Assembly (NCBI GenBank): GCA_003144275.1
Contig: NJBF01000004.1
Span: 1 to 32,000 of the forward strand
Length of the DNA stretch: 32,000 nucleotides
Direction of reading: 5' to 3'
Source of the DNA: Candidatus Heimdallarchaeota archaeon B3_Heim
Lineage (GTDB): Archaea; Asgardarchaeota; Heimdallarchaeia; Hodarchaeales; Hodarchaeaceae
Shown: in pieces, positions 3,261 to 28,300 of the stretch
Numbering within the stretch: position 1 is the stretch's first letter
How the letters are laid out: every line of letters starts with the position of its first letter
The notes under the pieces: generated by a model
What the model was told of the DNA's origin: nothing
The model's input: the letters and a program-made list of their open reading frames with translations, nothing else
Database searches by the model: none
Program-made: the position numbers and the translations under genes

Positions 3261-3279
3261 TTTACAGAGATAGGTGAAT

Positions 3280-3417: not shown

Positions 3418-3465
3418 GAGGCTAAAAGATACTCTCTCCTCAATTCTATAAAGGAGATAATCTTA

Positions 3466-4167: not shown

Positions 4168-4177
4168 TTAAAACTCC

Positions 4178-4199
4178 TTTTTCCCCTTTTTTTTTCTTT
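4178..4199 (+). terminator. Archaeal oligo-T terminator between convergent genes
   Basis: T5, T9 and further T run immediately after the 4167 stop codon. Confidence 0.55.
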
Positions 4200-5426: not shown

Positions 5427-5431
5427 TTAAT

Positions 5432-5457
5432 TTCACAAATCCTTCACAAATTTATAA
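5432..5457 (-). promoter_or_regulatory. TATA box (TTATAAA, 5457-5451) with a tandem 9-bp direct repeat between it and the start codon
   Basis: TATA lies ~25 nt upstream of ATG 5426, with a purine-rich BRE-like tract further upstream. ttcacaaat occurs at 5432-5440 and 5443-5451 (11-bp period). Confidence 0.45.
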
Positions 5458-5699
5458 TCAAATTTTTTCTTTTCCAAGCATAAACTCAGACTTTTCAGGA
5501 GTAAATACTTATTCATTTTGAGTGGCGACAGTTCGTTGAATTTAACTAGTATTCCAAATCACTAGGAGCGATGATGTCTTTTACATTTAGATAAATAATT
5601 GTTAAATTAATGTAGTTCCGATTGATAATTAAGATTGTTCTTTTTAAACTCTTCTCCATCTTCCTCTTTGACTAAAATAGCGAGATGTGGAAGCAATAA

Positions 5700-7349: not shown

Positions 7350-7369
7350 TAATCAAAAGAGGCTAATAC

Positions 7370-7909
7370 ATGACAGAAGATAACCAGGTTGACATGTCCA
7401 AGTATCAGTTAACCTATCAACCGATAAATGTGCTAAATGTAATCATAGCTCTTCTCATTCCCGCAGTTGTGGGATACTTCACAGTGCTTCTCATAACGAG
7501 TGTTTTTACATTTATATCCAGAGAGTTATGGTCGATACCTGTAGTTTGGCCAGGAATATTATACTATGGAGGACTAATAGGAGGAGTATTCGGAGGAATC
7601 ATAGCTATAGTTGAAGTAGCATTATTTCACCATAAAAACCGTCAAATATCATCTGGAAAAATAATACCTTCTGATCTATATTACATTGGTGTCTTAGCAT
7701 TATTCACCTATGTGCTAGAATTCTTTTCAGAAAGCTTATTACTACAAGTAGTACTTTTTATTTTGGAACTAGGGTTTTTTCTGGTTCTAGGCTGGAACAT
7801 AAGTAAATTATCTCTGGAATCACGTATTAGCGTGAATAAAGAAAACCAGCTTACGACTGGCATAATTCCAGCGAACAAAGCTTCAACGGAGAATACAGAA
7901 ACAGAATAA
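7370..7909 (+). CDS. Hypothetical membrane protein (about 4 TM)
   Basis: Four hydrophobic segments; AGAGG SD; 20 nt after lysS, so probably co-transcribed. Confidence 0.75.
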   Translation: MTEDNQVDMSKYQLTYQPINVLNVIIALLIPAVVGYFTVLLITSVFTFISRELWSIPVVWPGILYYGGLIGGVFGGIIAIVEVALFHHKNRQISSGKIIPSDLYYIGVLALFTYVLEFFSESLLLQVVLFILELGFFLVLGWNISKLSLESRISVNKENQLTTGIIPANKASTENTETE

Positions 7910-7961
7910 TCACATTCTAAAGAAAAAATGTAGATAAGGAAACGGTGAAGACAACGAAAGG

Positions 7962-7968
7962 TTTTTTT
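7962..7968 (+). terminator. Possible oligo-T terminator
   Basis: T7 run ~50 nt after the 7909 stop codon. Confidence 0.3.
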
Positions 7969-8070
7969 CCTAGAAGTACCATTGAATGTAGATTGAATTA
8001 CAGAATTTCGAAGAGGAAAGTTCTTTGATCTTCCTTTATATTATGTAGATGAAGAATGGTTTGAACCTTT

Positions 8071-8475
8071 ATGCAATTTAGAACATTTGGTTGGATCGCA
8101 CGGCAAAATCCACACATTCGCTTGACCGAAAGTGAAACTATTGATGATAATCGGTTTATTTTTAGTGGCCTTAAAGGAAAATCGGTTGAGACACCCGTTA
8201 AAGAACGAAAAGACTGGTTTAAGAAAGGGGAGCTGTGGCCGACGTTAATTTTGGTTGAAAAAGCATGGGATGAGGAAACAGGTGCACGGACAGAACATTC
8301 GTTTGTTCGCATTTTCCGGCATGAAGACGGCGCCATATTGGATATTCTTGTAGCTTTAAGCATGGACACCGCTACACTTCTTGCCCACGACTTTAAAGTA
8401 CCATTATTTAGTGTGACCTGTTCACGAAAAGGAACTCGGGGAACTGCTCAGCGCATACACATGGATATCTTATAA
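8071..8475 (+). CDS. Hypothetical soluble protein (134 aa)
   Basis: Protein-like composition; fills the gap before the convergent operon; preferred over the antisense ORF 7998-8369. No family recognised. Confidence 0.6.
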   Translation: MQFRTFGWIARQNPHIRLTESETIDDNRFIFSGLKGKSVETPVKERKDWFKKGELWPTLILVEKAWDEETGARTEHSFVRIFRHEDGAILDILVALSMDTATLLAHDFKVPLFSVTCSRKGTRGTAQRIHMDIL

Positions 8476-8504
8476 ATCCAATTCATCCAGTGAATCTTGG
8501 TAGC

Positions 8505-8750
8505 TTATTCTTCACGCAATAAGGTAGTATATTTTGTAACGGTATTGATTGAGCGGACAAACCCCTCAGCATCAATGAAGAGAATTCGTACATGGGAGGG
8601 ATCCATATCGATTCCGTGTGTATCCACGAAGATGTCTAGACCAGTGAGATCAGGTTGTAATTCAGAGACAGGTACAGACAACGCAAATGTCTTATTACAT
8701 GCAGTACAGGGTTCTGTTCGCAGGCGTAGATTATCTGACATAGATTTCAT
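8505..8750 (-). CDS. Small putative Zn-binding protein (C15-x2-C18...H45...H53), last gene of the receptor operon
   Basis: CTAC, DTH and HVRILFIDAEGFVRS. ATGA overlap with the stop of the 993-aa gene; AAGGA upstream. Confidence 0.75.
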   Translation of the reverse strand: MKSMSDNLRLRTEPCTACNKTFALSVPVSELQPDLTGLDIFVDTHGIDMDPSHVRILFIDAEGFVRSINTVTKYTTLLREE

Positions 8751-11728
8751 TCCTTATCACTATCATCAAGAAATTCGGATTCAAAATCACCCATTATACT
8801 ATCGGTTACATCATCCATATCTGTTTCAATTTCCTCTAAAATCTCCACAGTTCCAGAGATAAACAGACGGAATTCTTGAATCTTTTGATTGATGATTTCT
8901 TTGTCTTCACCAGCAATAATATAGTTCTTAATATCTTGCATGCCTTCTTTGATTTCTTCTTGGAAGTTATGTGAGACTTCAGTCCACTTTTCACGCATCA
9001 GAAGCATCATAAACAAGACTCCCTGCCGAGGGGTTTCAGGAGTATGTTCTAACGATAATGTAGACACCCACTTTTGAGGTAAACTCGCAACAGGATAGGC
9101 AAAAGTAATTGCTGAACAGCTAATTTCTTCAATGGTAAAGTCAACATAGGTGACCATATCTTCAGCCCGAGTTTGCATGACGAAATCCACAGTATTATTG
9201 GCTCTATCAACTAGTTCTTTCAAATATTGATAGAAATGCCCAATCAGGGAAGGCTCCCAAAGGAGGGTACTGGTGATTCCTTCACCTTGACCATAGGCTG
9301 CCACAAAACCAAACATAGCCTCTTCCCCGAGGTACGCTAGACGTTCGCCACCTCTTAATGCAACGTCGAAGCGTCTTCTACGTACAGTTCGCAATCTCCG
9401 TCTTTGAGTAATTTTAATTGCAGCAAATAATGAAATTATGATGGTAGTGATTATAGTTTCTGTTATAAACAGGCCTATTGCTGTGCTGACAAAAATACGA
9501 GTAATATGAGCATCTATAGGTCGGTTTTCTGAACTAATACTGTTACCATCATTATCTATGGCATTAATTCGAAATTCAATTCGTTCACCCCCAATTACAC
9601 TAGTTGAAAGACGGATGAAGTAAATTCCACCATCTTCATCAAGATCAAGAGTAATCGGTTCACCCCAGCCAGATCCCTTTCTCTTTTCTAATGTAACTTC
9701 AGCTATCCCGCTACCTCCATCGACCGCTTGAACCCAAATATTCAATTGACCTGGGATAGAATATTTAGATTCCCTGATCTGTACTTTGGGAGCAACAGTG
9801 TCCTCAAGCACAATAATTTGGGTTGCACTATTCGTATTTCCTTGTTTATCAAGGACAGTTACATTGATGGAATAAGTGTTTAGATCTCCATAGGTATAGG
9901 GTAATTTTAACGCTCCACCTGGGGTGGAAGGGGTTGATCGAACTTCAAATAACCCAGTTAAACTATTTCGACTTAATTGAACGCTTGAATAATCAATCAA
10001 TCCTGATCCATCAGGATCATTTGTTATAACAAGAGATCCGTTAGCAAATCTAGCAGCCAGAAAAACTCTATCTATATCCCCAAAAGGGTCTGTGGCAGAA
10101 GTAGTAACAAAAACATGGCCTTCCTCAATGGTACTGGGGATAATTTGATTGATCTGTATTTCTGGTATCACAATATCCATTGATGAAATAGTGGAAAACC
10201 CTGAATAGGATTTCGAATTTCCCTGGGTATCACTAAGGAGGATATTAAATTGAAGATTACTTTCATATCCTACCTCTAATTTCACCTGAAATAGCGTCAC
10301 ATTTCCCATTGTAGATTTGTTAGTCATAGGTACTGATTGAGATTGTAAACCATTAAGAGTGTAGTTTAATATTGCTTCCTCAACACCAAAACCCCAATCA
10401 CTAGCATTAATGCTTAATATGACAGTACCATTGCCAAAAAAGTGAACAAAATCAGCATTAGTAGGATCTAATTCACTGATGATTACGGGAGGAGTATAAT
10501 CCCCTATTGTCTCCGAATATACCCCTGTGGTGAAAGAATTCCCTGTACCATCGAAGATGACAAATTTGTAGGATAATATATCACTGACATTAACACCAAC
10601 ACTTTTTTGCCAATAAGTCTGATTATATCCCGCGGAGGTAATATTGGTATTTATTTGATATTCCAAACTTGTATTTGTTTGAATATTGACTGAACCAGAA
10701 CGATTATAGAAAACTGTAACGTTTTTTATTGAACTTTCCCACGTACCCTCACTGAAATGAGCCCAGAAATTATACATGGAAACATCAGCGGTTCTTTGCA
10801 ACCCCACGTCTGTAGGTTCAGGTGGACTGTTGTCTGTGACATCAGTTATCCCTATGATTTCAATATCATCAAACCACACATCAAAATACTCATTCCAGTA
10901 TTCACGAGTGTTTAAATAAGTCCCTAATTCTAATGTATAATTTGCAAGATCATTTCTAGGGACATGAAAACTCCCTGTAAAACTAAACCATTGTTCGTCA
11001 TAAATAACAGATGGACCTACACGGTAAAATACGGACCCATTCGGATTATGGAGAGTACTGGGATTTCCCAACCAGAAATAAGTTTGATCGTCAGGAAAAG
11101 CAATATTACAGCGAATTTCTTGATAATCAGGTGAACCTTCTATAACAACTCCCGGTACCAATTCTGAGAAATTATCAAACGCAGGGGGATCATAAACATC
11201 AAATCGCCATTTGAAACTTATATTTATTTGATCATAGTCTTGTGAAACAGGAAAATCAAGTTGCCAACCAGCTGAAATTCCTTCAGAAATATTTTCATTA
11301 AGTGTATCATTTAAATAACCCCCATTACCAATTCTAACAAACAATGATTCAGAATCAAAATCCTCATCAGTAGGATAGATCGTCCCATTTTCATAAAGAG
11401 TTGGATCTGATAAGACTAAGGGATCTGATCCAAGTGAATCATTCCAGATATTGTTGACAAAAGTGAAGGCCTCATTATCATTATCTATATTTTTTGATAA
11501 TATGTTTGTAACGTTATCTTGCTGAATAGAAAAACGAGAAACTTGATCTGATTGAGTGAAGAACGTATCTTCGGATACTGGTACATTTTTACCTATAGAT
11601 TCATCTGTTATTTCATGTACAAGGTGAGTCTGTAATGTAGGAGAGGTGTTCATGTGCATTGTCAAGATAATAACGTTAGTATTGAATAATAGTAGTAGTA
11701 AAACAATATTTAGTCTATATTTAGTCAT
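8747..11728 (-). CDS. Single-pass membrane protein: CBM-like domain, Ig-like stalk, TM, degenerate longin/uDENN-like cytoplasmic domain
   Basis: Signal-like IVLLLLLFN; VWFDDIEI-terminated beta domain; DxxGN/DTVAP Ig-like motifs; TM at ~9410-9485; poly-Arg; cytoplasmic domain aligns by eye with the two upstream paralogues (WEP, LVDRANNTVDFV, CSA, LLMREKW, FQEE). Confidence 0.85.
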   Translation of the reverse strand: MTKYRLNIVLLLLLFNTNVIILTMHMNTSPTLQTHLVHEITDESIGKNVPVSEDTFFTQSDQVSRFSIQQDNVTNILSKNIDNDNEAFTFVNNIWNDSLGSDPLVLSDPTLYENGTIYPTDEDFDSESLFVRIGNGGYLNDTLNENISEGISAGWQLDFPVSQDYDQINISFKWRFDVYDPPAFDNFSELVPGVVIEGSPDYQEIRCNIAFPDDQTYFWLGNPSTLHNPNGSVFYRVGPSVIYDEQWFSFTGSFHVPRNDLANYTLELGTYLNTREYWNEYFDVWFDDIEIIGITDVTDNSPPEPTDVGLQRTADVSMYNFWAHFSEGTWESSIKNVTVFYNRSGSVNIQTNTSLEYQINTNITSAGYNQTYWQKSVGVNVSDILSYKFVIFDGTGNSFTTGVYSETIGDYTPPVIISELDPTNADFVHFFGNGTVILSINASDWGFGVEEAILNYTLNGLQSQSVPMTNKSTMGNVTLFQVKLEVGYESNLQFNILLSDTQGNSKSYSGFSTISSMDIVIPEIQINQIIPSTIEEGHVFVTTSATDPFGDIDRVFLAARFANGSLVITNDPDGSGLIDYSSVQLSRNSLTGLFEVRSTPSTPGGALKLPYTYGDLNTYSINVTVLDKQGNTNSATQIIVLEDTVAPKVQIRESKYSIPGQLNIWVQAVDGGSGIAEVTLEKRKGSGWGEPITLDLDEDGGIYFIRLSTSVIGGERIEFRINAIDNDGNSISSENRPIDAHITRIFVSTAIGLFITETIITTIIISLFAAIKITQRRRLRTVRRRRFDVALRGGERLAYLGEEAMFGFVAAYGQGEGITSTLLWEPSLIGHFYQYLKELVDRANNTVDFVMQTRAEDMVTYVDFTIEEISCSAITFAYPVASLPQKWVSTLSLEHTPETPRQGVLFMMLLMREKWTEVSHNFQEEIKEGMQDIKNYIIAGEDKEIINQKIQEFRLFISGTVEILEEIETDMDDVTDSIMGDFESEFLDDSDKE

Positions 11729-14700
11729 TAGAATTCCTCCTGCATAACTTCGTCATAATTAATTCCAGCATATAATTTGTTGAAAGAGAGCATTAATCGT
11801 GATACATATTCACGTAATTCTCGTGCTTTTTTCCCTATCTCAATAGGATCTTTTTGTGTTTCAATCATGTCACGTATCTCCCGAAGCTTTTCAGTTAATT
11901 CGTCTTGGAAGACTAAGAGATTATCTCCCCATTCTTTCCTAAGTAAAAGGACAATTGTTAAATTTTCTTTTCCGCCACGAGCTTGTGGATTATCTATTGC
12001 AAATGAATAGCCTAAAGCCGTACACTCATAACTCCCAGTTGAGAAATCAAAAGTCCCAGTTCTTTCGGTTTCATCTATCCCAATAAATTCCAAAGTTGAA
12101 AACGCCTTGTCAGAAAGATCTAGCATAACTTGTTCTTGATCTTCAAGTAAGGCGGGTTCCCAAATCACAGGGACAGGTCCTTGAATCTGATCAAAGAAAT
12201 TAACAGTAACCCCAAGAGCGTATTCATCCATTTGAGTGAGAATGACTTCACGAGAAATCTTCTCACCCTCATCGAAGATTTTCTTCAAATCATATCCTTC
12301 GGTTCTAGAAGTAATTCTAATCCCTATAATGATTGCAGAAATTAAAATAATGGCTCCAAACAGTAAGACGTAGGGATGAAAAACAAGAGGGGGTAAGCTA
12401 CCGTCAACAGGTAGATTTAGTGACTCTAAATCACCTTGATCATAGATTTTCCAATTGCCCGTCTTATCAGCAAGTTTTATCTGAATACTATAAGACTTTG
12501 AGGAGACGAGATCGAAGAGGTCGAGCGGTAAGGTTGTAGTAGCATAATAGTAAATACTTTGATCTTGATCTACCCTACTTCCTTTACCAACTTGCTTAGT
12601 AAGATTTACCCATTGAAAAACTTGTGTACCTTCTAGATTAAAAATTCCTACTTGAACATACTCAACACCGAAGCCTAATTCATTTACTGTTACATTAATT
12701 GAGAGGATTCGATCAGTGTTTTGGGTTATTTTTATTGATTTAATTCGAGGAGCAACATGATCTTCTATAGTAACTTCAATAGTGCTATTCACATTATTCC
12801 CTGCATTATCAGCTATCAAAACTGTGAGCCTGTAAGTTTTCCCTACGGTCAACGTCCCGTTCCAATCAAATCGTAGCTCTGCTCTCTTATTCAGAAATTG
12901 TGGTGAGGCAGCTATTGTCATTAATGACGTAGTAGTAACATTCATTTCTATATCTGTTATTAAAATCCTAACATAACTCGTATTAATGCCAGACCAGATT
13001 TCATCTTGAATAAAAACAGAAATTACGACGTCTCCATCCGTTATGTTACTTAAATCGTCAATTTCATCAAGATTTAAGTAGAAAACTGAGATTTCAGTAC
13101 CAGCTTTCAAATTGAATTTGGGATCATATGGGTCATAATCTGCTCTGACAGTGAAAATTTCGGTAATTGTATTGGTCTTAAGTAGATCCCCAACAATATC
13201 TGGATACTGGTCTGGTTTCACCTGATCAGAAATCTCAAGAGAAAATGTAAGAGGGTCATCTTCATCGAAATCAAACTGAAAATAACTTAAACTCAACCCT
13301 TCGCTATTATTTATTTCTTGATTATACGTATATCTGATATAATAGCGATAGACACCCGATGGAAGAATGATGTATTCAATATCTCCAAGAAAATTGTAAA
13401 ATACATCAGGACGTTTATCAAACAGTACGACAGTATCCACACCACTTCCATTCCAAGCTTCCGTGTCATCAGATATATCTACGACAATTAAAATAGTTCC
13501 ATTTCCAAAGTCATATGTATAAAGCTCCACAACTTGTGGTGCTTTGTCGTCAATCCAATAAACAACTAGATCGCCTACTTTAGGATCCATGTCAATGTCT
13601 AACCATTGATACTGAATCTGTGCTTCTGAAAGGCTAGTATTAGTATCAATTATACTAGTTATAAGATAAGTATGATTATCGGGACCGAAGCTAAAATCTC
13701 TAAAGTGTGTCCACGATACGTTTTCCCTTAAAGTGCCATTATTTAGAAGAAGGGTGTAAGAAATAGAGCTAGGATTGACAATCTCATCACTAATTAAATA
13801 ATTATAAGTAACGTAAATATCTGACCATGTCCCATGTGAAGCTGTTATATTTGCTTTTAAGGTAAGTACAATCTTATCCCAAGATATTATTATACTATAG
13901 ACCTCGGTTGACACATAGAGGACATCAAAATCAATTTCCGTAGTAATTTCCATTACAGCGAAGTCCACCGTACCTCCATAATCTGTTAAATCACCATTCC
14001 AGACTGCAAATCCATTCACAAAACTAACAGAATAATTTTGCGCGGTTTGAAAAGCAAATACGAGTGCAGTTCCATTGAATGGAGATTGATCAAAGGAATG
14101 TCGGCCATAAATATATAAGGTTCCTTCTTCTCCGTAATTTACAAAGAATTTATCTACACCTATATTATCCCAATCTGATAAATTAGAATATTGAATATTT
14201 GAATAAACAAACTTTATTTCCTCCCAGATTAAATCAACTGAAACACTAGGATTTTCGATATCGATCACAGAGGAATTAGTAAACTTTGTAATTCCATAGG
14301 TGGAATCATCAATCTCTTTAATTCTATACCCGTAAATTCCAGTATCAAATTGAATCAAACCTGAATAAACACCAAAACCAGCCGTCATTGGTACTTCTGA
14401 CGCAATAAACCAAACATCATCTTCTACTACAATAATCTCATCAAAAGTAAGGTTTTCATCATGAGCCCAGGATGCACTCAAGAACACAGAAGTCTGATTT
14501 ACCGTGGATAGCCTTCTATCTAATTCCTCGGGAAACATATCGATTATCAGATACGTCCAAGTAATGATGAGGGTAAAATTCGCATCGCCAGCAGTTTTAT
14601 CCACAAATAGAGTCCCCTGAGGATCAAAAGCCGATCCACTTGTAATGATACAGTGAAAGGGGACAATGCTGGCATTCAGATGTGTATAATTTATGGTAAA

Positions 14701-16341
14701 TATTCCGTCTAAATCATCCCCGTTTGTACCATCAGTTAAATTGTACCAACTTTCGGTTCCGAACTTGTAAGAAACATTCCCTCCCATTGCAGAAGAACCA
14801 TCAGAGGCATAGAATACACCTAATTCTAAATTCCAAGATTCATTAACATCTACCCATAGAGCCTTTTGGCTAGGTAAAATATTACTCCCAGAATTTTCAT
14901 TATTATCAGTGTAAATATAATCAAAAACTAAGAGGTCCCAAAATATAGTCATATTAGAGGGTTTATTAATTTCTTGCGATGTTCTATGTCCACGGACGAA
15001 GAAAAGTAGGCTATAACCACTTGTAGGCGTGAGATCTGTTGCGGATAGTGCAATACTTCCGATTCCAAAGTCATTAGTTTCCTGATATAATAATGCTGTA
15101 GGATCTTCAGGCCTATTTGGATTCTGATATCCAATTGAATGTCTACGTGGTGAATTAGTACCTTGTTCAGAGTCAAAAACATGAAAAGTGACATTTAAGG
15201 TATCATTGACATTTAAACGGAATTTTATATTCTCTTGGGTTCCAGACACTAAGTCGTCATAGCTGATAGGAGGATAAGATTCAACAGTCAATTCTTCAAG
15301 GATAACATAATAGATAGTTCCCTTTGCAGTAAACTGAACGGTGGTATTATCTGTTATTCCTTCAACAGTAGTGACTGATACGATTAATTCATGATCACCC
15401 TCATTAAATTCTTGGGATACACTAACAGGCAGACTATAATTTAAGGTATATCTCCCCTCGGCAGTAGTGTTGGAAATAAATCCAGCAAAGGTAAGTTCAC
15501 CACTAGTTGTTGTTGATTTAACTATAGCTTTTGGATTCGAATTTGTGATATTAGGTAAAAAGTCTACAAAATAGAAGTTAGAATTAGTTGTATAGTTTTT
15601 AACCTGTATTTCAATAGTAAAAGGTTGCTCATTATCAAGCTTATTGTTAAATTCGGCAGCAGGTGAAACACTTAAAATATCAACCCTTACATCTCGCATG
15701 GGAAGAGATATTGAATCACTTGAAAGATGTCCCGAAACATTTGTGTACATGATAAGATCGTAAGAGCCTAGTTCCAGTGTTGTTAAGAATGAATTATTTA
15801 GAGTAAAAGTGAGGGAATATTGATCTATAAATGTACCATTCTCATCTTGCAGTTCAACCCAACCTCCAGACCAATCTGTGATCTTAAAATTACTACCATT
15901 GGTTATAATTAGGTTCTCAATATCCTCTGAACCGTTCACACCTATTGCACCTTCTATTGTGCAATTAAGTATAAATGTCATTGAGGTTGCATTCTTTTCC
16001 ATTGCCTCTGGAGATATTTTCGTAATGGTAAGGTCATCACTCGCACTAATTCCAAATCTTGGAGAGAAAAAGGGATTAGTATGAAACGCGTTTAAAGAAG
16101 AAAGATCAGATTCGTGATTATCAGTAATTTCAGAAGATGAAACGGATTCTTCGAGTTGAACAGAATTACTTGACATTAAACGGGGGAGAATTTTTGAGAC
16201 TGGATTTTCGTTCCGAAGTGAGGAATTTTCTGAAATACCCTGTTGGGGAGATATCACAGCAAAAACATTGAAAAGCAGAAGTAGCACTATTCCCAATGAG
16301 TACTCTCTCTTTTTTACCCTAGGCACAGCAAGTAACATCAT
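11728..16341 (-). CDS. Single-pass membrane protein: beta-rich ectodomain, TM, FLCN/SMCR8-like longin (uDENN) domain with ARG motif
   Basis: Signal-like IVLLLLFN; many N-x-S/T sequons; TM at ~12310-12375; cytoplasmic GVTVNFFDQIQGPVPVIWEP ... GYSFAIDNPQARGGKENLTIVLLL. Confidence 0.88.
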   Translation of the reverse strand: MMLLAVPRVKKREYSLGIVLLLLFNVFAVISPQQGISENSSLRNENPVSKILPRLMSSNSVQLEESVSSSEITDNHESDLSSLNAFHTNPFFSPRFGISASDDLTITKISPEAMEKNATSMTFILNCTIEGAIGVNGSEDIENLIITNGSNFKITDWSGGWVELQDENGTFIDQYSLTFTLNNSFLTTLELGSYDLIMYTNVSGHLSSDSISLPMRDVRVDILSVSPAAEFNNKLDNEQPFTIEIQVKNYTTNSNFYFVDFLPNITNSNPKAIVKSTTTSGELTFAGFISNTTAEGRYTLNYSLPVSVSQEFNEGDHELIVSVTTVEGITDNTTVQFTAKGTIYYVILEELTVESYPPISYDDLVSGTQENIKFRLNVNDTLNVTFHVFDSEQGTNSPRRHSIGYQNPNRPEDPTALLYQETNDFGIGSIALSATDLTPTSGYSLLFFVRGHRTSQEINKPSNMTIFWDLLVFDYIYTDNNENSGSNILPSQKALWVDVNESWNLELGVFYASDGSSAMGGNVSYKFGTESWYNLTDGTNGDDLDGIFTINYTHLNASIVPFHCIITSGSAFDPQGTLFVDKTAGDANFTLIITWTYLIIDMFPEELDRRLSTVNQTSVFLSASWAHDENLTFDEIIVVEDDVWFIASEVPMTAGFGVYSGLIQFDTGIYGYRIKEIDDSTYGITKFTNSSVIDIENPSVSVDLIWEEIKFVYSNIQYSNLSDWDNIGVDKFFVNYGEEGTLYIYGRHSFDQSPFNGTALVFAFQTAQNYSVSFVNGFAVWNGDLTDYGGTVDFAVMEITTEIDFDVLYVSTEVYSIIISWDKIVLTLKANITASHGTWSDIYVTYNYLISDEIVNPSSISYTLLLNNGTLRENVSWTHFRDFSFGPDNHTYLITSIIDTNTSLSEAQIQYQWLDIDMDPKVGDLVVYWIDDKAPQVVELYTYDFGNGTILIVVDISDDTEAWNGSGVDTVVLFDKRPDVFYNFLGDIEYIILPSGVYRYYIRYTYNQEINNSEGLSLSYFQFDFDEDDPLTFSLEISDQVKPDQYPDIVGDLLKTNTITEIFTVRADYDPYDPKFNLKAGTEISVFYLNLDEIDDLSNITDGDVVISVFIQDEIWSGINTSYVRILITDIEMNVTTTSLMTIAASPQFLNKRAELRFDWNGTLTVGKTYRLTVLIADNAGNNVNSTIEVTIEDHVAPRIKSIKITQNTDRILSINVTVNELGFGVEYVQVGIFNLEGTQVFQWVNLTKQVGKGSRVDQDQSIYYYATTTLPLDLFDLVSSKSYSIQIKLADKTGNWKIYDQGDLESLNLPVDGSLPPLVFHPYVLLFGAIILISAIIIGIRITSRTEGYDLKKIFDEGEKISREVILTQMDEYALGVTVNFFDQIQGPVPVIWEPALLEDQEQVMLDLSDKAFSTLEFIGIDETERTGTFDFSTGSYECTALGYSFAIDNPQARGGKENLTIVLLLRKEWGDNLLVFQDELTEKLREIRDMIETQKDPIEIGKKARELREYVSRLMLSFNKLYAGINYDEVMQEEF

Positions 16342-19300
16342 TCTATGAACTCCTTTTTATACTTCTTTCTGAAAACGATCATTGCTCTAGTTAAGAAATT
16401 ACGAGTAATTTCCATTTCTTTTTGTACCAGTTTTGAATCAGCATTTTCCTTCATAAGATGATGTATATGTTGTAAACGTTCAACTAATTCATTCATGAAT
16501 CTATTTATATTTTCCAGATTACCCCAAGGAGGCCTAACAACAAAACTAAGGGATAAATTTTCCTGACCTCCACGAGCTTCAGGATTGGCAACAGCAAACG
16601 CATATCCAAATACCGTACATTTATCAGCACCAACTTGGAACCGGAACGTAGCATGTTTATCATCCTCAGGATTAGATACAAATCCTAGAGTCGAAAATGA
16701 TCTGTCTGAAAGGCTAGCGAGCATTTTTTCAGATGAACGAAGCTTTTCGGGATAAACAATTATAGGTACAGGCCCTTTCGTTTGATCAAAGAAGCTAGCA
16801 ACTATACCGATTGAAACACTATCATTTTCTTCCCAAACTTCATTGTCTGATATATTCACCATTTCTGTCAAAACTTTTTTCTTATCAAATCCACTGATTG
16901 TCCTAAAGCGTTGAACCGTAATAAAACCAATACTGAACAGTATGGTAAAAATTAGGAGAATTACGATAGGATTATTAAGTAACTCCTCTGCACTTGACGG
17001 AATATTATATCCATCATCACTCAGTGATAATGAAGATAATTTCAATGTAGAATTTATTTCGCTATTGCTAATAATTCGAGTGTTTCCCTCTGAGTCAGAG
17101 AGAGATAACGAGAATAGAACAGATGTATCATCAATGAAGTTGGTAGGTATTGAAAAATCACCTAGAAATTTGGCATTATATCTAGAAGTTGTTTTTTGTA
17201 GAGAAGAACCACTTCCAACAGACAAGACTTTCGTTAAATCAATATATTTCCACTCCCCTCCAACATAATATCCTAATACTGCCTTGGAGATTTCTGATCC
17301 ATCATCTGCGGTTGCGATATTAATAGAGAATGAACCAAAACCTAGATAAGCGAAAGTACCACCTACTAATTTGGGACCAGCTCTATCAAGAATTTCAATA
17401 TCGTCAGTAATTATCTGAACATTTCCGACTATGTCGGAAATTCGAATTTCATACTCTAAGAGAGTTCCAACATCAAACACTGAACTAAAAGAATATTCAC
17501 GTCCCCTATCTACATTTCTATAACTCATCGAATAGAATTCAGACCAGTTTCCTGTAGATGGATCTTTAAAAGCTATAACTGCACCAGATAATCCAGACCA
17601 GATATCTGTTGAATTTACTGATACTGTAATTCTTCCATCTTGTGAACTAGAGAAATTTATGAACACAGGGTCATGAATAGGGGTAGCACTATCAGAATCA
17701 AGAAATTTTTCAAACACATGGCTAATTTCATTCCCTTGATTATCTTTCAGAGAAATCGTATAGGTAACGCTCTCATTAAACTTGAAATTATTTCTTGGGG
17801 TACTACTATCTGTAGTTAAACTACCATAGAACATTGGACCGGAGCTAGTATTATATTCTGTCAGGTATAGAGGATCTCCTGGTGGAAAACCAAAAAGAGT
17901 CAATTGAACAGTAATATTAGCTATGTCGCTACCGAAATAACTTTCTGGAGAGTCATCACTTGCGATAACAAGGAAACCTATGGATCCATTTCCCCAATCT
18001 AATAGCTCATGATAAACTAAAAGTGGATCAATATTATCTATCCATTCGATAGTAATTTTAGCCTTAGGTTGTTTCACAAGACCGCTAGAGAATGTACCTC
18101 TCAGATTTGTCTTGTAATCAACTGACCAATCAATATGATAAGTATGATTTAAAGCATGTATCTCGAAGTCGGTGAAGTAAAATTGAGTTCTATTTGACAA
18201 GAAAATCTGCCCATCTCGATACAAAGAATATTCAAAATGAGAGGAGTCAAGAGATTTACCATCTTTCTCATAGAAAATAGAGAGAGAGACATTCAATGAT
18301 TCACCAGGATAATAATCTAATTGATCAGGGATAAAATCAACAAGAATTCTATCCCATCTAATAATCAACCATCGACTACCAGATTCACTTAATACTAGAT
18401 ATCCTTGACGTTCTTTTGTACCATTCAGTCCATGCAAGTCCTCAAGAATTCCATTAACTAAAAATAAGGTATCTCCAGGTCTTGTTGTATATTCAGGAGC
18501 AATAGGAACGCTAACACTATCATTCCAATTCCTTGGATTGTAAAAAAGGGACGAAGAATTTGAAAAACTTCCATGTTGCATTTTAATTATTCCGTTGAAA
18601 GGGGTGTCGTCATAATCATAGTAAGCTACAATTTCAACAAATGCTGTTTCATTAACATTAAATCGTATATTGGATCCCCATGGTTGTGCAAATCCAATTT
18701 GGAAAATAACTTGATCCCAAATAATTTCGACTTGTATTTTGCCATCATCTGCTTCAAAGCTAGAGATTCCAAATCTAGGATCAATAAATTGGCTAATACT
18801 ATAAAATGCATTTTCAACAAGTCCATTAGAGATTAGATTAGGGAAGGAAACTTGATAGCCATCCCATTGGGAACTGGGGTAAGCTGTAGATATATTCTCA
18901 TTCAGAATAAATACTCTAACACCAGTCAAATCTAAGGTTGAATCGTGTGCATATCTTACAGATACATTAATAGTTGCTCCTGTTAAACGTGGAATTCTAT
19001 AATCTTCAGCCCATATATCAACTATAAATTTCGTCCAAATAGATGTATTTTGCGAGTAAGTTGCACTAGTCTGGTTAACAAACGAGAAAACCTCACCAGG
19101 ATAGTCAGGATAAGTAGAGTAATATCTATAATCGTACCCATCAGAAGTTGCTTCCTCTGTTGCTCTCACGGTTACTGTTGCTTTTACAACCTCACTAAAC
19201 TGAAACTGGAAATCGAGTTTTCCATCGGCAAAATTAGGAGCGGAAGGAGTATCAATTACAAATAGATTGCCAATAGTCGCTGTTCCATTGCTAAAGAAAA

Positions 19301-22300
19301 TGGGGAGTAAACTACCATCGCCATCTGTATGAACAAAATTAGTCTGATTAAATTGAATCCAATCTTGACCATCATACTGCCATAATGTTATATTAACCTG
19401 GAAAACACTCCCAGCAGCATTTATTCCAGAGCTAGCAAATTGAGTATTGTAGGTTAAGGTGTAATTACCATCAACATTAAGAACAGAGTTATTAATGTCA
19501 GTTGGATCATCGTCTACATCAGATGTTGCTGCTTCCATTTCATCCCACTCTAAGTAGAAACGCCATGTACTATCACTGAAACCAAGTTGTTTTTCTTTGT
19601 TATCTTCGACATAAGCAATAAAAAGCTGACGTATTACCTGATTAGAAGTAACATTAATTGTAATAAACGAGGTTTGATTTAGGGCGCTTTTTTCCTGTTC
19701 TGCACTATCCCAAGGAGTTTTCCAGTATATATTCTGCGGATCTGTACTTTCTACAGTAGGATTATCGAATGCATATATCCGATATCTAATGGTAATTGTC
19801 GAACCAACTGAGACTCTAAACGTCCAATCCAGTACTTCAGTAGAATTTTCATAACCAAATGTGAATAAACCATCTGAACCAAAATCTGGAATGTAAACCC
19901 ATTCTAGTCCCAGTAGAAGTGCGAGATCTTTACTTGTAAGTATGACGCTATTTTCCTCACTAGACACTGTTACTTGATGACCATCAATGTCGCTTATTGT
20001 TAAGCTTAGTGCGATCTTTCCAATACCTAATTGTGTTGCATCTTCAACCTCTAATACAAACCTGAGATAGTACTTCCCTTGAACTTGATTGATATAACCC
20101 CACTCTAGGAATGAATTTATTGTTGCATTGAGATTGATAACTTCAATATTCTCTAAGAATATAGTAATGAAATTATCTGTGAGATTAATATTTGTAACGG
20201 GTTCATTTCCAAATCCGATATCATCTAAAACAGTGAAATTCAGAGTAAAAGGTGTCTGTTCATCAGGATCGAAGAAATCTAGACCACCAGGCCAAGTTCG
20301 TATAGAATCAATAATCATTTTAAGGTCATGGCCTTTAATAGTCACTACTCCCCATTCCCAGAGATTGGACACAGTAGATTGTACTTTGAAGCGAATGGAT
20401 TGATTGCCTAACCATTGGATTGTTGTATTAGCGGCAAATAAGTCAAAACTAAAACCATAACTCCCATTAAGGGAGTTGAAAAAACTGCCAATATCAATTT
20501 GGTTGGTGTAATCAGAACCTTTGATAGACAGTTCTTCTAGAGATGTACTTAGAACATAATCCAATGATTGGTCCCCTTCATCTTCGCGAACATCGTAATT
20601 GACTGATATAGAGAAATCACCATCTATTTCAAACAATTGCATACTAGAGGGAACAATGGCATCAATTACAATGTCATAATATGTTACTCGACCTAAACTA
20701 ATATTTGAGTCAACCACATGATAGTACAATCCAGAGGAAAACAGCCAATTAAACTCAATATCTTTTAATCCAGTTGTTAAACCCTCTGGAAGCTGAAATG
20801 TTAGATTATGATTGCCATTCGCTAGATGAACAGATTGGATAAAGGTAGCATCAGCTCCATCAATTGTAAGATTTACATTAAAATCAACTAAGTCTGTAGT
20901 ATAAGGACTATCATCGTTCTCGAAATAAAGAATCACATTCATTAACGAATATTCTGGATTGTTAGTTTCAACTATATCAAGATCATCAGATACATATGAG
21001 ATTTCTAAATCGTGATATGTAACTACATTGGGTTTTGTAAAACTAAAAGCGAGAGAAATGTCCGCAGGAAGATCACTGACAAACCAGTTGATTTGGATGG
21101 AATATGTTGAACCTACAGAAACAGAAGTTAAACTATCTGGTAAATCAACAATTAAAATAAGAATATCATCTGACCAGCTAATACCACCTAAAATAGGAAC
21201 ATTTATACCGTCGATTGCTACATTAAACTGTGAAATATTAAGAAGACGATCGATTATTGCTTGAGTCTCATTAATTTGTAATCCGTCAAACTCAAAGTTA
21301 AATGTAATATTCCATGTGCCAGGATCATCAATTTCTACATGACGAGGAATAGTAGTGACTAAATTTACAAAGTTAAATAAGTGATAGGTAATATCTGCTG
21401 TATAACTATATTCATTGTTAACATTATCATAAACAATAATAGATACAGTTTCATTTTGTCCAGGAGTAATGACAGAATCGAAATTTGAGTCATTTGAAAG
21501 GCTCCAAGCGGTGAATCCAGTAGATACAATATCCTCAAACAGTGTAGAAATAATAGTAATATTTTGGATTCCTGATCCTAAACCATCATCAGTTTGACCA
21601 GAGAGGATAAGCTCCTTTCCATTCTGGTGAAGAATAGTCGTATCAATAACGTAACCCGCTTCAAATGGATTTGAATTATCCAGTCGAATAAGAAGGTATG
21701 CCTGCGCTTGATTATTTACTTGGTCGTAAACCGTTAAAGTAATATTAACTACACCATCATTATCATCTGAAATATTTATACCTAAATCAGAAAGAAGATT
21801 ACCATCTCCATCAGCACCAAGGTTTTGTGAAAAATAGGAATCACCACTGGTACTATCCCAAGACATATATACACTGAAAACTCCACTTAGGGAATCACTG
21901 GGAATTGAGAAAATATCATACCCACCTGTTAATTCTCCCTGATCGTACCAATTATCCAGATTATCTAGTTCATTACTCGATGGATCATAAACAGGATTAG
22001 AAACATCATTAAATGCAACAGTAGGATTTAAAAGGTCTCGAATAACCTGTAAGGGAATCTGATAGGTGTTCCCCACTTTATCATAGATCAAGAAAAAGAC
22101 TGTGGCGTTTGTATCATCAGTAGAAGTTAATTGATAAATTCTCGACCCAGAAGTGAGATTAATTTCTGGATCATTACCAATTAGTGGATAAGTAGTAGTA
22201 GCAACTCCAGCATCATTTACGTCACTATCAGATGTTGAAATCGTAATTGTAACTGACTGAGGAGAGGAATCCATCAAATCGGAATACCAAATCTTATCAA

Positions 22301-25300
22301 GATCAGCAGAATGAACATAAATTGAACCTCCATCATCAATAGATACTATACTTCCTGAAGGAGCTTGTGTATCACGTCTCACTTCCAAAGAAACAGAATC
22401 AATATTACCACAGTTATCGATACTAGTGAAGATCATGTTCCCAATATCAGTAGATGTGTTGGAAATAGTATAGGTCCAAGCATAGGGAGTAGTAGAATCA
22501 TTTAATGCTAGACCTCTGTTAAAAAAGGAGGGAAAGAGAACAAATTGTATACCAGAATCATCAATCTGTGCTCCATCATCTGTAACAACTGAAAAATCAA
22601 CAATAATATCGCTAGGCATTTGATTACCATACCATATAACCTGAGTCCCATTAGCAGGATAATAAGCAAAATCGGAGATTTCAGAAACAATAACTGGATT
22701 AACCGTTGGAACAGTATTATCCTCATAACAATTAATTGCTAAAATTCTAGTATTTCCTACCCAATCGATAATTATTAATGTAATCTGATCATCAAGACCA
22801 GCATCATCAGTGAATCCAACGAAATAAGTTAATTCATACATGCTATCATATGTCGTGTCTTCAGGAGATTCACCACCAAAATCAGAGCTGCCGCTAACTT
22901 TTTGCAGATCTGATATACCATCTGAAGTAGTTAATTGGATGGTAAAGGAGTCATTCATACTCTGATCATTTGAATAGAAAATACTTGAACCATCATAATA
23001 TAGATGTTCTGAGTCCTCAATAACATCCACAATGGATGGAACAGTCGGAGCTGTATTATCAAAGGTACATGGAAGGTTTACGGTATTATTGTTCCCAACA
23101 TTGTCCACAACAGTTATTATTATTTGATTATCTCCACCAGCGTTATCATTTTGATTCACAGTATATACCATCTCGTACATTCCACTATAAACGGTATCTT
23201 CAGGAGTTCCTCCAAAATCTAAACTTCCTATAGCTTTTTGTAATCCCGAAAGAGAATCAGTCGAAGTTAGTTGGATTGTAAAGCTTTCTGCCATAACCTG
23301 ATCATTGGAGTAAAACAGATTGGTTGTCGTTAGATTATATAAGTAGTCAGATGTCTCAATAATGCTTACTATTACAGGTTGTGTAGGTTCAACATTATCA
23401 ACAGAGATCGTAAGACTAACGCTGGTGGGATTGCCTACGTTGTCCCATACGGTAATACTAAAGGCAGGTTCTAATTCTCCTTGGTTAACTATGAACGATA
23501 ATTCATAACCGCTTCCACCATAAGTACTGTTTGTAACAGTATCCCCAAATTCACTAGCATTGGCTTTTAAGAGATCACTCCCAGTATCGATAGCCGTAAC
23601 TTGAACAGTAAAACGTTCATTCATAATTTGATCATTGGAATAGTAAAAGGTTTCACTACCTGATTCATAGAAAAGATATTGGGATCCAACTTCAACAAGA
23701 ACATCCACAATATCTAAACTTGTAGGACCAGTATTATCAAGGACGCAAGAAAGAGAAGTGGCAATTGAATTGCCAACTCGGTCATAAACCGTTATAATAA
23801 TTTGATTATCCCCACCTGCGGTTTCACCATCGCTTAAAGTATAATAAAGTGAATATTCGGATGAATAGGAAAGATTAAATGGAGATTCTCCTCCAAAATC
23901 AATACTTCCAGTAGCATTAAGAAGATCTGCTCCGCTATCGCTCGTAGTAAAGTGAATCGTAATGACTTCACTCATTTGATAATTATTGGAATAGTAAAAG
24001 GTAGGGGCATTGTAATATAAATACTCTGAATATTCATCAACTGAGGTAATCACTGGAACAGAAGGATTGTCATTATCCAACTGAAGATCAACACTAAGAG
24101 AGTTATTAACGTTTCCTACTAGATCATATACATTAAAGGTGATGAGAGCGCCACCTGTCTCACTTTGACTCACGGTATAATTAATTTGATATCCACTATC
24201 ATAAGTAAAATCACTTGGAACCTCACCGAATGCGCCAGTACCTGTTAAATTGTATAATCCGGCTCCACCTACGTTATCTTGAGCAAGAATGGTAATAATG
24301 AAAGTATCGGACATTGGTTGATCATTTGAGAAGAATAAACGAGTTGAAGAGTTATCATAATAGAGGTATTCACCATTTTCTACAAAGCTAACAATGGACA
24401 GATTTTCGGGACTTGAGGTATCACGAACCACTTGTATAACCATATAGGTTTCACTTCGTCCACTAGCATCATAAGCCGTCGCATTAATCCAATAACCATT
24501 AGGTGTTGCATTCGTAACATTGAAGGTACCAACAAGGGTCTCATTTTGTAAAAGAATTGATAAGAAAGGTTCAAACCGTGTGTATCCTCCTATCATTCCA
24601 CTCCCACTGTCAAGAGCGGTAATCGTCACATTAAAGTTAGCTGGATTCGATCCCATTAAGGTGCTGTAATACAATTTGTTATTGGGTGTATCAGCGAAGA
24701 TAGTCCATTTATATGGAATAAATTCACTCAGAGATTGAAGTGAGACAATGGGATCTTCTTCGTCTACGAATAGATTTACTTGTATCCAGCTACTATTGAT
24801 TCCAGCTAAATTCCGTGCTCTAACGAGGATACTACGATTTCCTGTGTTTCCAATATCATAATTAATCAAGGAATTGGTGGCATTGTAATAATCAGTGTTG
24901 ATAATATTATACCATCTCAGCAATTCTGTTGAATTATCATAGTTTTGCTCTGTACTGTTTTGATCGCTTTTTATATAGATATCAGTGATTTTTGAGCTCG
25001 ATTCAAAGATAAAGGTTAGATTAAAATCAGACCCATCCCAATCATATAAGAACGGATTAGGAATCCCTGGTTCATTTCCGAGGACATCAATGCTAAAAAT
25101 GATTGGTCCCAAAGTATCTAAACGAAGGTTAAAACCATAGAGACCTGAACTAAAAATGTGTGTCTGAATATTCCCCGCCTCATCTTGGACACGAATATCA
25201 ATTGTGTTTTCTCCATTAAATAGAGTATCATTCCATGAAGAGATAGTCCAGTTTGTGACATAATCGCCAGCTTGGGTTGAGTCAAATATAACATACCAAC

Positions 25301-28300
25301 CTTGGCCGTCATCTGTTTGATATTCCGCTTTAGTCAATCTACTAGCTAACGAATGAGTCTCGTTGTTCCTCAGAAAATCTACATCAAATGTCGTTAGATA
25401 ATCCGCGAGATTGTAATAAGGAGTTAATCCACCTGCGGTTGGATCATTATATTCTATTTCTGGGGGAGTATCATCGTGCCAAATCTGAACACTAGCTGAT
25501 TGAGTGTTGTTGACGTGATCCCAACAATAGACTGTAAGAGTAATATTAGCGTTATTTATGATATTAATTTCATTTTCATCATTCCAAGTTGACCCTACTA
25601 GGGAATCGACTGTAAATACTTGTTGTGTTGCAACGTAAGAGGTTAATACTTCATCATATTGCGAAAATGCAAAGCTTGTAGTAGTAATCCCACTATTATA
25701 AGTTCCTAAATTATCAATCGCTGTTCCACCATATGATGCAATTCCTCCAACAGAATTGTTCCAACCTGAAGTGGGGAAATCAATAGTTAATGAAGGAGCT
25801 GTATTATCCTTCCTACAGGTTAAACCAATCGAATTTCTATTGCCAACTAGATCATATAACCAGATTGTAAGAGTACCATCCGAAACATCGTCATTTTGGA
25901 CAATATTGTATTCCAGTTGATAATATGTACTGTAAGTTGAATTTCCAATTCCTGTATCACCAAATTCGTCATCTCCCGTTGCATTCTTTCTTCCTACTCC
26001 AGAGTCTGTCCCAGAAATATGAATTTTGAATGTGGCACTCATAGGTTGGTCATTGGAGAAAAATAAATTAATTCCATCATAATAAAGAAAATCTGATTCG
26101 GGAGACTCAAGAAGAGCAACAATAGCTAAACTTTGAGGCGGTGTATTATCAAGGTTGGTTGTTAAAGCCACACTTGCAGGATTACCAACATTGTCCCAAA
26201 CTGTTATACTAAATGCTGGTTCTGAATCTCCTTCATTAACAACGAAGGATAATTCGTAACCACTGGGTCCGTAGAAGCTCTCTGAAACACTGTCCCCAAA
26301 TTCAGTAGCATTAGCTTTTTGTAAATCACTTCCCGTGTCGATAGCCGTCACTTGAACTGTGAGGCTTTCTGCCATTGTTTGATCATTAGAATAATAGAAA
26401 GTCTCTCCACTACTGTCATAATATAAAAATTGTGCTCCGACTTCTTCTATTACATCATCTATTGAAACACTTGTTGGACCGGCATTATCTACTACACAAC
26501 TTAAAGAATAAGTTCGTGAATTGCCCACTTGATCATAAGCTGTAATATTTATCCAATTATCAGCACCTGCAGTTTCACCATTACTTACGGAATATGTAAG
26601 GATGTACTGAGAATCGTATGTAGAATCCTCAGGTGTTTCTCCTCCAAAATCAGTACTACCGTTTGCTTTAAGTAATCCCGATATTGCATCGGTAGTGGTA
26701 AATTGAATGGTTAAGCTATCACTCATCGGTTGATCATTGGAATAGTAAAATGTAGGCGCATCATAATAAAGATATGCTGAAGACTCAATAACAGCAGTTA
26801 CAATGGGTAGAGAAGGATTACTATTATCTAGAATGCAACTGATGGATGTTGAATTGGCATTTCCTACTCGATCAAAGACCTCTATCACTATCTGATTATC
26901 TCCACCTGCATGTTCGGTCTCCCCGACAGTATATACAAGATCATATTGCCCAAGATAGCTAATATCTTCAGGTGTTCCACCAAAATCAGTGCTACCATTT
27001 GCTTTCAGGAGCCCCGCACTTAAGTCGTCAGTCGTTAATTGAATAGTAAAAGGATCATCCATTGGTTGGTCATTAGAATAATAGAAAGTCTGTCCACTAA
27101 TGTTGTAATATAAGTACTCAGACGACTCAATTATTCCTATAATGGTAGGTTCTGTAGGTGATTGATTATCAAGCACTAGAGTCAGACTAACAGAAGAATT
27201 AACATTTCCTACACGATCAAAGACCGAAAATAATATTGCTCCACCACCAGTTTCCCCTATACTTACAGTGTAGGAAATAAAATATTCACCTACGTAATCA
27301 GAATCTGATGGTTGTTCGCTAAACGCAAGGCTACTAGTAAGATTTTTCAACCCTGCACCTCCTCCATTGTCCGCAGATAGTAAGGAAACATCGAATAAAG
27401 CATTCATTATTTGATCATTTGAATAATAAAGAGTTGTGATGGAACTATCATAGTAAAGATATTCACTTGAATAACTCACACTCTGAATCGTTATCCCAGA
27501 TGGAGGTGTATTGTCTTTGACTAAGTTTAATGTTACAGAATCAATATTATGTACCCTATCATAAACTGTAAATGTTATTTGATCTCCTGATGCTTCTTCA
27601 TCGTAACCGACTGAATAATTTACAAGATAATATCCTTGATACGAGGTATCTGAAGGGGTGTCAGTAAAATCTGTGCTTCCTTCAACTTTTAATAATCCAC
27701 TTCCCACACCATCTTGACTTGTGATATTAACACTGAATAATTCATTTTGTCCAAAGTGCTGATTTGCATAATAGAGAATGGTAGCTGAATAGTCAAGAAA
27801 TTCACTGTTTTCGATGATTTCATTTATAGGATCAATTATGGGAGCAGTATTATCTAAAGTAACTGGAAGAAGAATACTACTATTTACATTGCCCACTTTA
27901 TCATATACAAAGACTTGAACCACTCCACCGCCAACAGTTTCTGATTGAGAAACAGTATATTGGAGGTCAAATGTCCCTGATGCATTTGTTGTTATAACAG
28001 GCGATTCTCCAAAGGCTAATGAGCCCGAGACATTTTCAACACCACTCAATAATTCAAGAACATCAATATGGAGCGATAGGCTTTCACTCATTGCTTGATC
28101 GTTGGAGTAAAATAAGACTGTTCCACTATAGTAAAGGAGATCGCTGACATCAGGGCCAGTTAATGAATCGAGTGTTACGAAATCTGGGGCATCGTTATCT
28201 AGGATACAATCTAAATTGAGAGAATTACTATTACCAACGTTATCAAATATCGTTAAGATAATATAGTTGTCAGATGCATATTCATTTGTGTTGAGAGTAT

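Follow-up and report, generated by a model that had tools for sequence, protein, structure and literature searches.

Gene A of the archaeon Candidatus Heimdallarchaeota archaeon B3_Heim encodes a giant surface protein whose C-terminal, cytoplasmic tail is predicted to fold as a longin domain of the kind found in the GTPase-activating proteins (GAPs) FLCN and SMCR8. The 3' part of the gene lies on the minus strand of a 32,000-nt stretch of contig NJBF01000004.1 (hereafter the window), and the tail is encoded near its end, within positions 16338-16830. We think it probable that this tail is a GAP-type longin, tethered to a receptor, that acts on a GTPase of the Rag/Gtr1 family through an arginine finger. 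The FLCN/SMCR8-like interpretation is supported at the level of fold, residue position and conservation; that the tail is catalytic, which way it signals and which GTPase this operon serves are our inferences. Positions given below are those of the whole window unless full-length or model numbering is stated.

Gene A encodes a giant single-pass surface protein

The initial annotation, made from the sequence alone, had proposed that 16338-16830 encodes the cytoplasmic domain of a giant protein and that this domain retains an arginine finger like those of FLCN (R164) and SMCR8 (R147). The feature is real. The minus-strand frame 16338..31931 is stop-free for 5,197 codons, and the segment in question specifies the C-terminal end of a giant surface protein that spans the membrane once; coding on the plus strand was ruled out, as the translation of 16338-16830 is full of stops. 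Both stretches on which the proposal was built are present in this frame (GIVASFFDQTKGPVPIIVYP at residues 5042-5061 and YAFAVANPEARGGQENLSLSFV at residues 5110-5131), and the codon of the candidate arginine is indeed 16572-16574, residue 5120 of the window frame.

The ATG at 31931 is internal to a much longer gene. In the genome, the frame continues to contig position 42803 and is open for 8,821 codons. Reading of the next 13 kb of the contig revealed a likely start, MKRKVSKHLSYGLLALLFLLLSS, which has the character of a signal peptide and yields a product of 8,816 aa, in which the candidate arginine is R8739. The window holds the 3' 15.6 kb of gene A (16338..32000, minus strand), and the full gene extends to about contig position 42788. 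Orthologous giant frames in related genomes encode 8,857, 10,069 and 10,431 aa.

The protein contains a hydrophobic hairpin at residues ∼197-240 and an acidic, Ser/Thr/Asn-rich ectodomain with 213 N-x-S/T sequons. Near its end is a single C-terminal transmembrane (TM) helix, NPIVILLIFTILFSIGFITV, recognized by hydrophobicity (window-frame residues 4987-5006; 16914..16973, minus strand), and beyond it a tail of ∼175-190 aa. Because the TM helix and then a positively charged juxtamembrane stretch, QRFRT..KKK, precede the tail, the tail is assigned to the cytoplasm, in agreement with the original proposal.

The tail is predicted to be a longin domain of the FLCN/SMCR8 type

An AlphaFold2 model of the A tail, based on a 95-sequence alignment, was obtained with high confidence (predicted local distance difference test score (pLDDT) 94.9, predicted template modelling score 0.90). 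The order of elements in the model (helix, β1, β2, α1, β3, β4, β5, α2, α3) is that of a longin domain, which spans window-frame residues 5040-5196 (16344..16814, minus strand) according to the model and fold searches. To rank structural relatives, we compared the model exhaustively with 48,161 PDB representatives using VIA-align. The best match was a Lokiarchaeal longin domain (8yqg; Z 14.9, root-mean-square deviation (rmsd) 3.1, 141 aa), followed by FLCN (6nzd_H; Z 12.6, rmsd 2.6 over 134 residues), C9orf72-SMCR8 (7o2w; Z 12.0), the FLCN-FNIP2 complex (6ulg_N; Z 11.0), Lst4 (4zy8; Z 10.9), DENND1A (6ekk; Z 10.4), and the longins of GATOR1 and SEA (8fw5_B and 8adl_S; Z 10.3 and 9.6). Generic longins (TRAPP, VAMP7, AP sigma, Sec22 and Ykt6) scored no higher than 8.8, and the predicted fold of the tail is therefore nearer to longins of the FLCN/SMCR8/NPRL2 type than to generic ones. 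Structural alignment to the FLCN and SMCR8 longins had been suggested as a check on the initial proposal, and it came out in its favour, with both scores above those of generic longins. Among Swiss-Prot models, SMCR8 proteins were the top matches (E 3e-6 to 5e-5), followed by DENND6, Npr2, Lst7, C9orf72 and Avl9.

The tail could alternatively be a small-molecule sensor of the PAS/LOV or GAF type that is followed by a signalling helix. Foldseek does return LOV proteins and sensor kinases (E 1e-4 to 1e-3). We rejected these matches as spurious because their rmsd values are 11-33 Å (TM-scores 0.3-0.37); moreover, GAF, LOV and LuxR-type ligand-binding domains reach Z values of only 6-6.8 in VIA-align, compared to 12-15 for longins, and neither the A tail nor its family members show any Pfam PAS or GAF signal. 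We regard a sensor domain as extremely improbable.

Sequence comparison points in the same direction as the fold. The top Pfam match of the A tail is Folliculin (PF11704), at a sub-threshold 14.8-15.5 bits (E 0.017-0.036). The same model matches 26 of 95 family members, with a best E of 1.8e-4, and every other Pfam family matches five members at most. In a six-frame scan of the 3.95-Mb genome to which the window belongs, the Folliculin model matches only three tails, all with an ARGG motif, and the matches always span the Arg-bearing stretch. At the same threshold, it also matches in 8 of 14 control genomes. PDB sequence searches, performed with the tail and with the family profile, returned no longin or FLCN match, only coiled-coil noise. 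Judged from the Folliculin matches, the resemblance of the tail to FLCN and SMCR8 goes beyond chance.

The GP motif and the candidate arginine finger occupy the expected positions

Two motifs in the tail correspond to those of GAP-type longins. The first, FFDQTKGPVP (16764..16793, minus strand), contains the 'GP motif' of such domains (16770-16775) and lies at the start of β2: G5053-P5054 are residues 29-30 of the AlphaFold2 model, in which β2 begins at residue 29. The second, ARGGQEN (16557..16577, minus strand), is conserved and carries the candidate arginine finger (codon 16572-16574), which is model residue 96 in the loop between β4 (79-91) and β5 (99-108). According to the literature, SMCR8 R147 lies on the βL4-βL5 loop and is the counterpart of FLCN R164; in the ARF1 complex, R147 is directed at BeF3, with the GTPase seated on two longin domains. 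The GP motif (SMCR8 G68-P69) is at the start of β2 and neighbours the arginine finger (PMC12290439). In a Foldseek alignment with human SMCR8, residues 19-138 of the model fall on 58-185, which would place GP 29-30 on 68-69 if that stretch is ungapped. Thus the arginine has, in the model, the same topological position as FLCN R164 and SMCR8 R147, as was initially proposed, and the modelled placement of both Arg and GP is supported as equivalent to that in FLCN and SMCR8.

The arginine is conserved across a family of Asgard tails

An exhaustive HMMER search returned 149 representative proteins that match the A tail at E ≤1e-3. These proteins range from 69 to 5,809 aa, and in all 149 the tail is at the extreme C-terminus; in nearly all members, as in A, the chain ends 1-10 residues past helix α3. 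The named members that we looked up are all 'hypothetical' or 'DUF2341' proteins from metagenome-assembled genomes (MAGs) of Heimdall, Hodarchaeales or Kariarchaeaceae affiliation, or from MAGs labelled only 'Promethearchaeota'. Of 400 Asgard genomes scanned, 106 contain the tail. It is present in 20/21 genomes of the genus-level group of the window, and two other families of the same class have it in 22/31 and 9/12 genomes; matches in the rest of the Asgard phylum are weaker.

Three blocks are conserved in the family: FFDQxxGPxP, LSDRSFS and ARGGxEN. The Arg of ARGG is kept in 105 of 116 full-length representative tails, and conservation of the first block in the same set is comparable (F 107, D 98, Q 100, G 112, P 106, P 114). 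At the genomic loci sampled, which represent three family-level lineages, Arg is present in 43/43 tails and GP in 41/43. Absence of the arginine from homologues had been set beforehand as an observation that would speak against an arginine finger; the opposite was found, both in the representatives and at the 43 loci. A second arginine, R5177 in helix α3 (16401..16403, minus strand), is invariant in the alignment. It is also kept in paralogous tails that lack the motifs (described below) and hence is probably structural in role.

Two further observations concern the reach of the family. In locus L004 (G000:C88), an open reading frame (ORF) at 1489-2646 on the plus strand encodes a 386-aa soluble protein without a Pfam match, the N-terminus of which weakly matches the tail profile (E 2e-6, profile positions 19-76); this could be a longin protein that occurs free. 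A different family of the class has tail proteins of ∼1,600 aa in two or three tandem copies, with the Rag pair after the last copy (G022:C160, with tails at 4789, 9758 and 14746; G033:C13; G019:C97; G040:C85).

Paralogous tail genes lie beside Rag-family GTPase genes

The third ARGG tail of the genome, which we refer to as D-type, ends a 3,075-aa protein encoded on contig 49 (locus L016, G000:C49:8000-24000; gene at 2040-11267, plus strand, in locus numbering). Directly after this gene comes one for a 735-aa protein of the Gtr1/RagA family (11296-13503, minus strand), and after that a gene for a 311-aa protein of the same family (13782-14717, plus strand). The two products match Gtr1_RagA (PF04670) with Pfam E values of 1.4e-30 and 7.8e-37, respectively, and the best PDB matches of the pair are Gtr1 (1.5e-26) and RagA (7e-19). 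The C-terminal ∼530 aa of the 735-aa protein contain no recognisable domain.

This arrangement is not peculiar to contig 49. Precomputed Pfam matches show that a Rag-family gene pair also flanks distant relatives of the tail in loci L018 and L019. We then inspected the 8.5-kb stretches downstream of 43 tail genes and found Rag-like ORFs directly after the tail gene in 27 of them, a count drawn from related loci rather than independent trials. In two other family-level lineages, with tails only ∼30% identical to that of A, Rag-like ORFs are present at 16/19 of the loci counted. The genome of the window has only four or five strongly Rag-like ORFs; given this number per genome, the chance of finding one within 7.5 kb is ∼0.01. 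The linkage between tail and Rag genes has survived deep divergence.

The contig of the window also carries a cluster of four Rag-like genes, ∼38 kb beyond the start of the giant gene (L060, G000:C87:77001-93000). One is on the minus strand (3702-4613, 303 aa) and three are on the plus strand (8010-9014, 9025-9969 and 10822-11754; 334, 314 and 310 aa). The cluster also includes a gene for a 271-aa protein of unknown character.

A docking model places the conserved motifs at the GTPase active site

As input for docking, we combined two contig-49 (D-type) tails with GTP, Mg and the G domain of the 735-aa Rag-like protein encoded alongside. The interface score ipSAE was 0.77, 0.77 and 0.78 in the three runs, compared to 0.00 for the best of three controls; 58 of 80 solved complexes attain this mark, as do 2 of 110 mismatched pairs. 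At least 94% of contacts are shared between runs, and the pLDDT of the partner is at least 88. In the docked assembly, one copy of the tail presents residues 21-27 (FFDQxxGP), 94-97 (R-G-G-K) and 99 (N) to the GTPase, and the other its GP region and helix α1. On the GTPase side, the interface comprises the P-loop (24-25), switch I (46-58) and switch II, including the catalytic Gln73, and the lowest-error pairs include tail G26 with GTPase Q73. The 30-residue interface of the tail contains 13 of the 21 invariant or nearly invariant residues, against 3.6 expected (hypergeometric p 7e-7).

A tail that binds a Rag-like or other small GTPase need not be a GAP. It could serve as an anchor or platform, in the manner of Ragulator, TRAPP or Mon1-Ccz1, or as a GEF (guanine nucleotide exchange factor) or effector site, with the arginine contributing to binding or stability. 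Among longin and roadblock modules, platforms and GEFs are in the majority, the A tail model is matched by generic longins too (Z 7-9), GEFs of the DENN family (DENND1A/B, DENND6) are among the fold matches, and the tail lacks a DENN domain and has an unproven partner subunit. Yet the combination of GP with a loop Arg is specific to GAP-type longins and is lacking in FNIP2, NPRL3, adaptins, TRAPP and DENND proteins (PMC12290439), and the docking model turns both loops, Arg and GP, towards the P-loop and the catalytic Gln rather than towards the side from which nucleotide exits. We consider a binder without GAP activity possible, if rather doubtful.

Gene A heads a conserved operon of paralogues

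Gene A is the first of four genes, followed by B, C and an 81-aa gene, in a conserved operon. Gene B (11728..16341, minus strand) encodes a 1,537-aa paralogue which, as seen from its ORF and alignment, has its own signal peptide, TM helix and tail. The B tail is 39% identical to that of A and keeps FFDQIQGPVP and ARGGKEN, the Arg codon being 11977-11979. Gene C (8747..11728, minus strand) encodes a 993-aa paralogue with a tail devoid of GP and Arg, an assignment based on hhalign, alignments and a model. The 81-aa gene (8505..8750, minus strand) overlaps C and is found at the same position in four related genomes. At the junctions, the genes overlap by ATGA (A/B), TAATG (B/C) and ATGA (C/81-aa gene), indicating translational coupling throughout the operon. 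The A-B-C gene order recurs in five to six other MAGs, and the 81-aa gene in four of these. The 81-aa protein contains a CxxC motif and lacks a Pfam match; proteins at the same position in L006-L009 are 52-57% identical to it, and a 36%-identical paralogue is encoded on contig C96.

A and B are homologous over ∼900 residues that cover the membrane-proximal ectodomain, TM helix and tail (E 2e-54), and B and C over ∼400 residues (E 2e-16). Homology of the C tail to the A-type tail was recovered by hhalign (97.4%, E 9e-12). In the C tail, GI, GV or GS replaces GP, the Arg at the finger position is absent, the β4-β5 loop has an insertion of 13 residues (nt 9020-9094) and the C-terminal end is acidic. 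These differences hold in all 42 orthologues of C that we found. A model of the C tail shows the same topology at moderate confidence (pLDDT 67.5), for which reason it was left out of the fold searches. Being homologous to the A tail and devoid of GP and Arg, the C tail is a candidate non-catalytic longin partner. By analogy, two motif-bearing tails with one motif-less tail recall the pairing of catalytic and non-catalytic subunits in FLCN-FNIP, NPRL2-NPRL3 and SMCR8-C9orf72.

The operon can also be read in another way, with the tails as sorting or assembly modules of the giants that dimerise the paralogues or recruit coat, ESCRT or cytoskeletal factors, and with no direct GTPase role here. 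The paralogy of A, B and C through stalk, TM helix and tail suggests a hetero-oligomeric surface structure, no GTPase gene adjoins the A-B-C operon, and the longin domains of SNAREs and of adaptor sigma/mu subunits serve sorting. Against this stand two facts: the A and B tails keep the same three motifs as the Rag-adjacent D-type tails, and the conserved residues are concentrated on the predicted GTPase-binding face. We judge a purely sorting or assembly role unlikely.

Other features of the window

The ∼500 nt that separate the 81-aa gene from the next clear gene (7998-8500) have a higher G+C content (∼0.40) and contain no ORFs other than overlapping ones on the two strands. Neither in this interval nor elsewhere in the window did scans for Rfam families and tRNAs give a match. 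By eye, the products of 1675-2952 (minus strand) and 5700-7349 (plus strand) resemble an Orc1/Cdc6-type protein and a class I lysyl-tRNA synthetase, respectively, neighbours that fit an archaeal chromosome.

Discussion

The account of these data that we favour is that the A tail is a receptor-tethered GAP-type longin for a Rag/Gtr1-family GTPase. In this scheme, two tails would pair, either as two copies of one tail or as a tail with that of its paralogue B or the motif-less C. The pair would form a longin-dimer cup that binds the G domain, and one tail would bring its GP and ARGG loops to the nucleotide pocket, near the P-loop, switch I and the catalytic Gln. There the arginine, which we infer to be catalytic, would speed GTP hydrolysis by an arginine-finger mechanism. 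As a huge glycosylated ectodomain is attached to the domain, clustering of the surface protein, or its ligand or contact state, would be linked to whether a Rag-like switch at the plasma membrane is on or off.

A number of points weigh against this account. In many cases a longin domain is a GEF platform or an adaptor instead of a GAP. The Folliculin score of the tail, ∼15 bits, is below the curated gathering cut-off of 23.3 bits. Eleven of the 116 representative tails, mostly from short or degenerate proteins, lack the Arg, and no DENN domain follows the longin of A. Over 8.7 kb downstream and 8.5 kb upstream, the surroundings of the A-B-C operon are free of GTPase genes, so that the Rag link rests on the D-type paralogues, the Rag-linked tails of which are only ∼36% identical to the A tail. 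The docking likewise used a D-type tail rather than that of A, assumed a homodimer and left the ligands unscored. Finally, similar complexes have already been solved (FLCN-RagC, GATOR1-RagA and C9orf72-SMCR8-ARF1), and hence the docking pass may reflect likeness to these known structures; we take the model as a sign of likeness, not as proof.

Comparison with known systems helps to define what the tail may be. FLCN (Lst7 in yeast), the catalytic partner of FNIP in a GAP for RagC/D (Gtr2), has the longin fold, the GP motif and the β4-β5 Arg in common with the A tail; Folliculin is also the only Pfam family matched repeatedly by members of the tail family, and the tail paralogues are likewise linked to Rags, here by genomic adjacency. 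Lst7 shares with the A tail the lack of a DENN domain. There are differences: FLCN is soluble and recruited to the lysosome, whereas the A domain forms the C-terminus of a giant surface protein anchored in the membrane; the FLCN motif is ARGF, compared to ARGGxEN in the tail family; and the partner subunit of the A tail is unproven. SMCR8, part of the C9orf72-SMCR8-WDR41 GAP for ARF and RAB proteins, provides the best Swiss-Prot model matches, at ∼18% identity, and the D-type docking model seats the GTPase on two longins as ARF1 is seated in the SMCR8 complex. However, the A tail lacks a DENN domain and WDR41, and the GTPases linked to its paralogues are of the Rag rather than the Arf type. 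NPRL2-NPRL3 of GATOR1 (Npr2-Npr3 in yeast), the GAP for RagA/B (Gtr1), matches in its longins at Z 10.3 and 9.6 and pairs a catalytic longin, with GP and Arg, with a non-catalytic one, resembling the A and B versus C tails; the tail-linked archaeal GTPases are closest to the type of its clients, Gtr1/RagA. The tail proteins differ from GATOR1 in having neither DEPDC5 nor the NPRL2-specific C-terminal domain. The best structural match, the Lokiarchaeota Roadblock-Longin protein (8yqg), is dimeric in the crystal, but has no detectable sequence similarity to the A tail and combines roadblock and longin domains in a soluble protein.

The core idea, an Asgard longin of the FLCN/SMCR8 type with a GP motif and an arginine finger, is already published. 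Liu et al. (2020 preprint) described Heimdall proteins with the longin and DENN organisation of FLCN as well as NPRL2-like longins, and FLCN/SMCR8-type longins with both features were reported from Asgards in Traffic in 2025 (PMC12290439), where Asgard Rag or Arf GTPases were raised as possible clients. The longins of the latter study belong to the same phylum and are the same GAP-type domain with GP and Arg as the A tail. Those named AlphaFold database entries of this sort that are nearest to the A model are small and soluble (231 and 412 aa), with the longin N-terminal; in the A family, by contrast, the longin forms the tail, and the proteins are ∼1,000 to more than 10,000 aa long. The word 'transmembrane' occurs zero times in PMC12290439, and the giant-protein context is not mentioned there. 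In our literature searches, we met with no account of giant surface proteins with longin tails, of the A-B-C operon or of conserved adjacency to Rag pairs. The soluble Asgard longins published earlier came without a partner or cellular context; what the present analysis adds is a GAP-type longin that serves giant surface proteins with a single membrane pass as their cytoplasmic output. Paralogues conserved beside a Rag-family pair offer concrete, clonable pairs of GAP and GTPase.

The finding bears on the origin of FLCN-FNIP, GATOR1 and C9orf72-SMCR8. These complexes are central regulators of mTORC1 and lysosome signalling, with relevance to Birt-Hogg-Dubé syndrome, epilepsy and amyotrophic lateral sclerosis/frontotemporal dementia, and some studies place Asgards of the Hodarchaeales type as the closest known archaeal relatives of eukaryotes. 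More tentatively, one can envisage, in Hodarchaeales, a receptor complex at the plasma membrane made of three paralogous giant glycoproteins, in which A and B would contribute catalytic FLCN-like tails and C a pseudo-GAP; asymmetric dimers like FLCN-FNIP or NPRL2-NPRL3 would switch off a Rag heterodimer upon contact by the ectodomain, and the lysosomal Rag nutrient switch of eukaryotes would descend from an archaeal surface receptor for contact or nutrients. We hold this extended scenario to be possible, with considerable reservation. More generally, the tails described here may wire a surface receptor to a GTPase switch of the eukaryotic type, and they suggest that the earliest connection of the Rag switch was with the cell surface and not with a lysosome.

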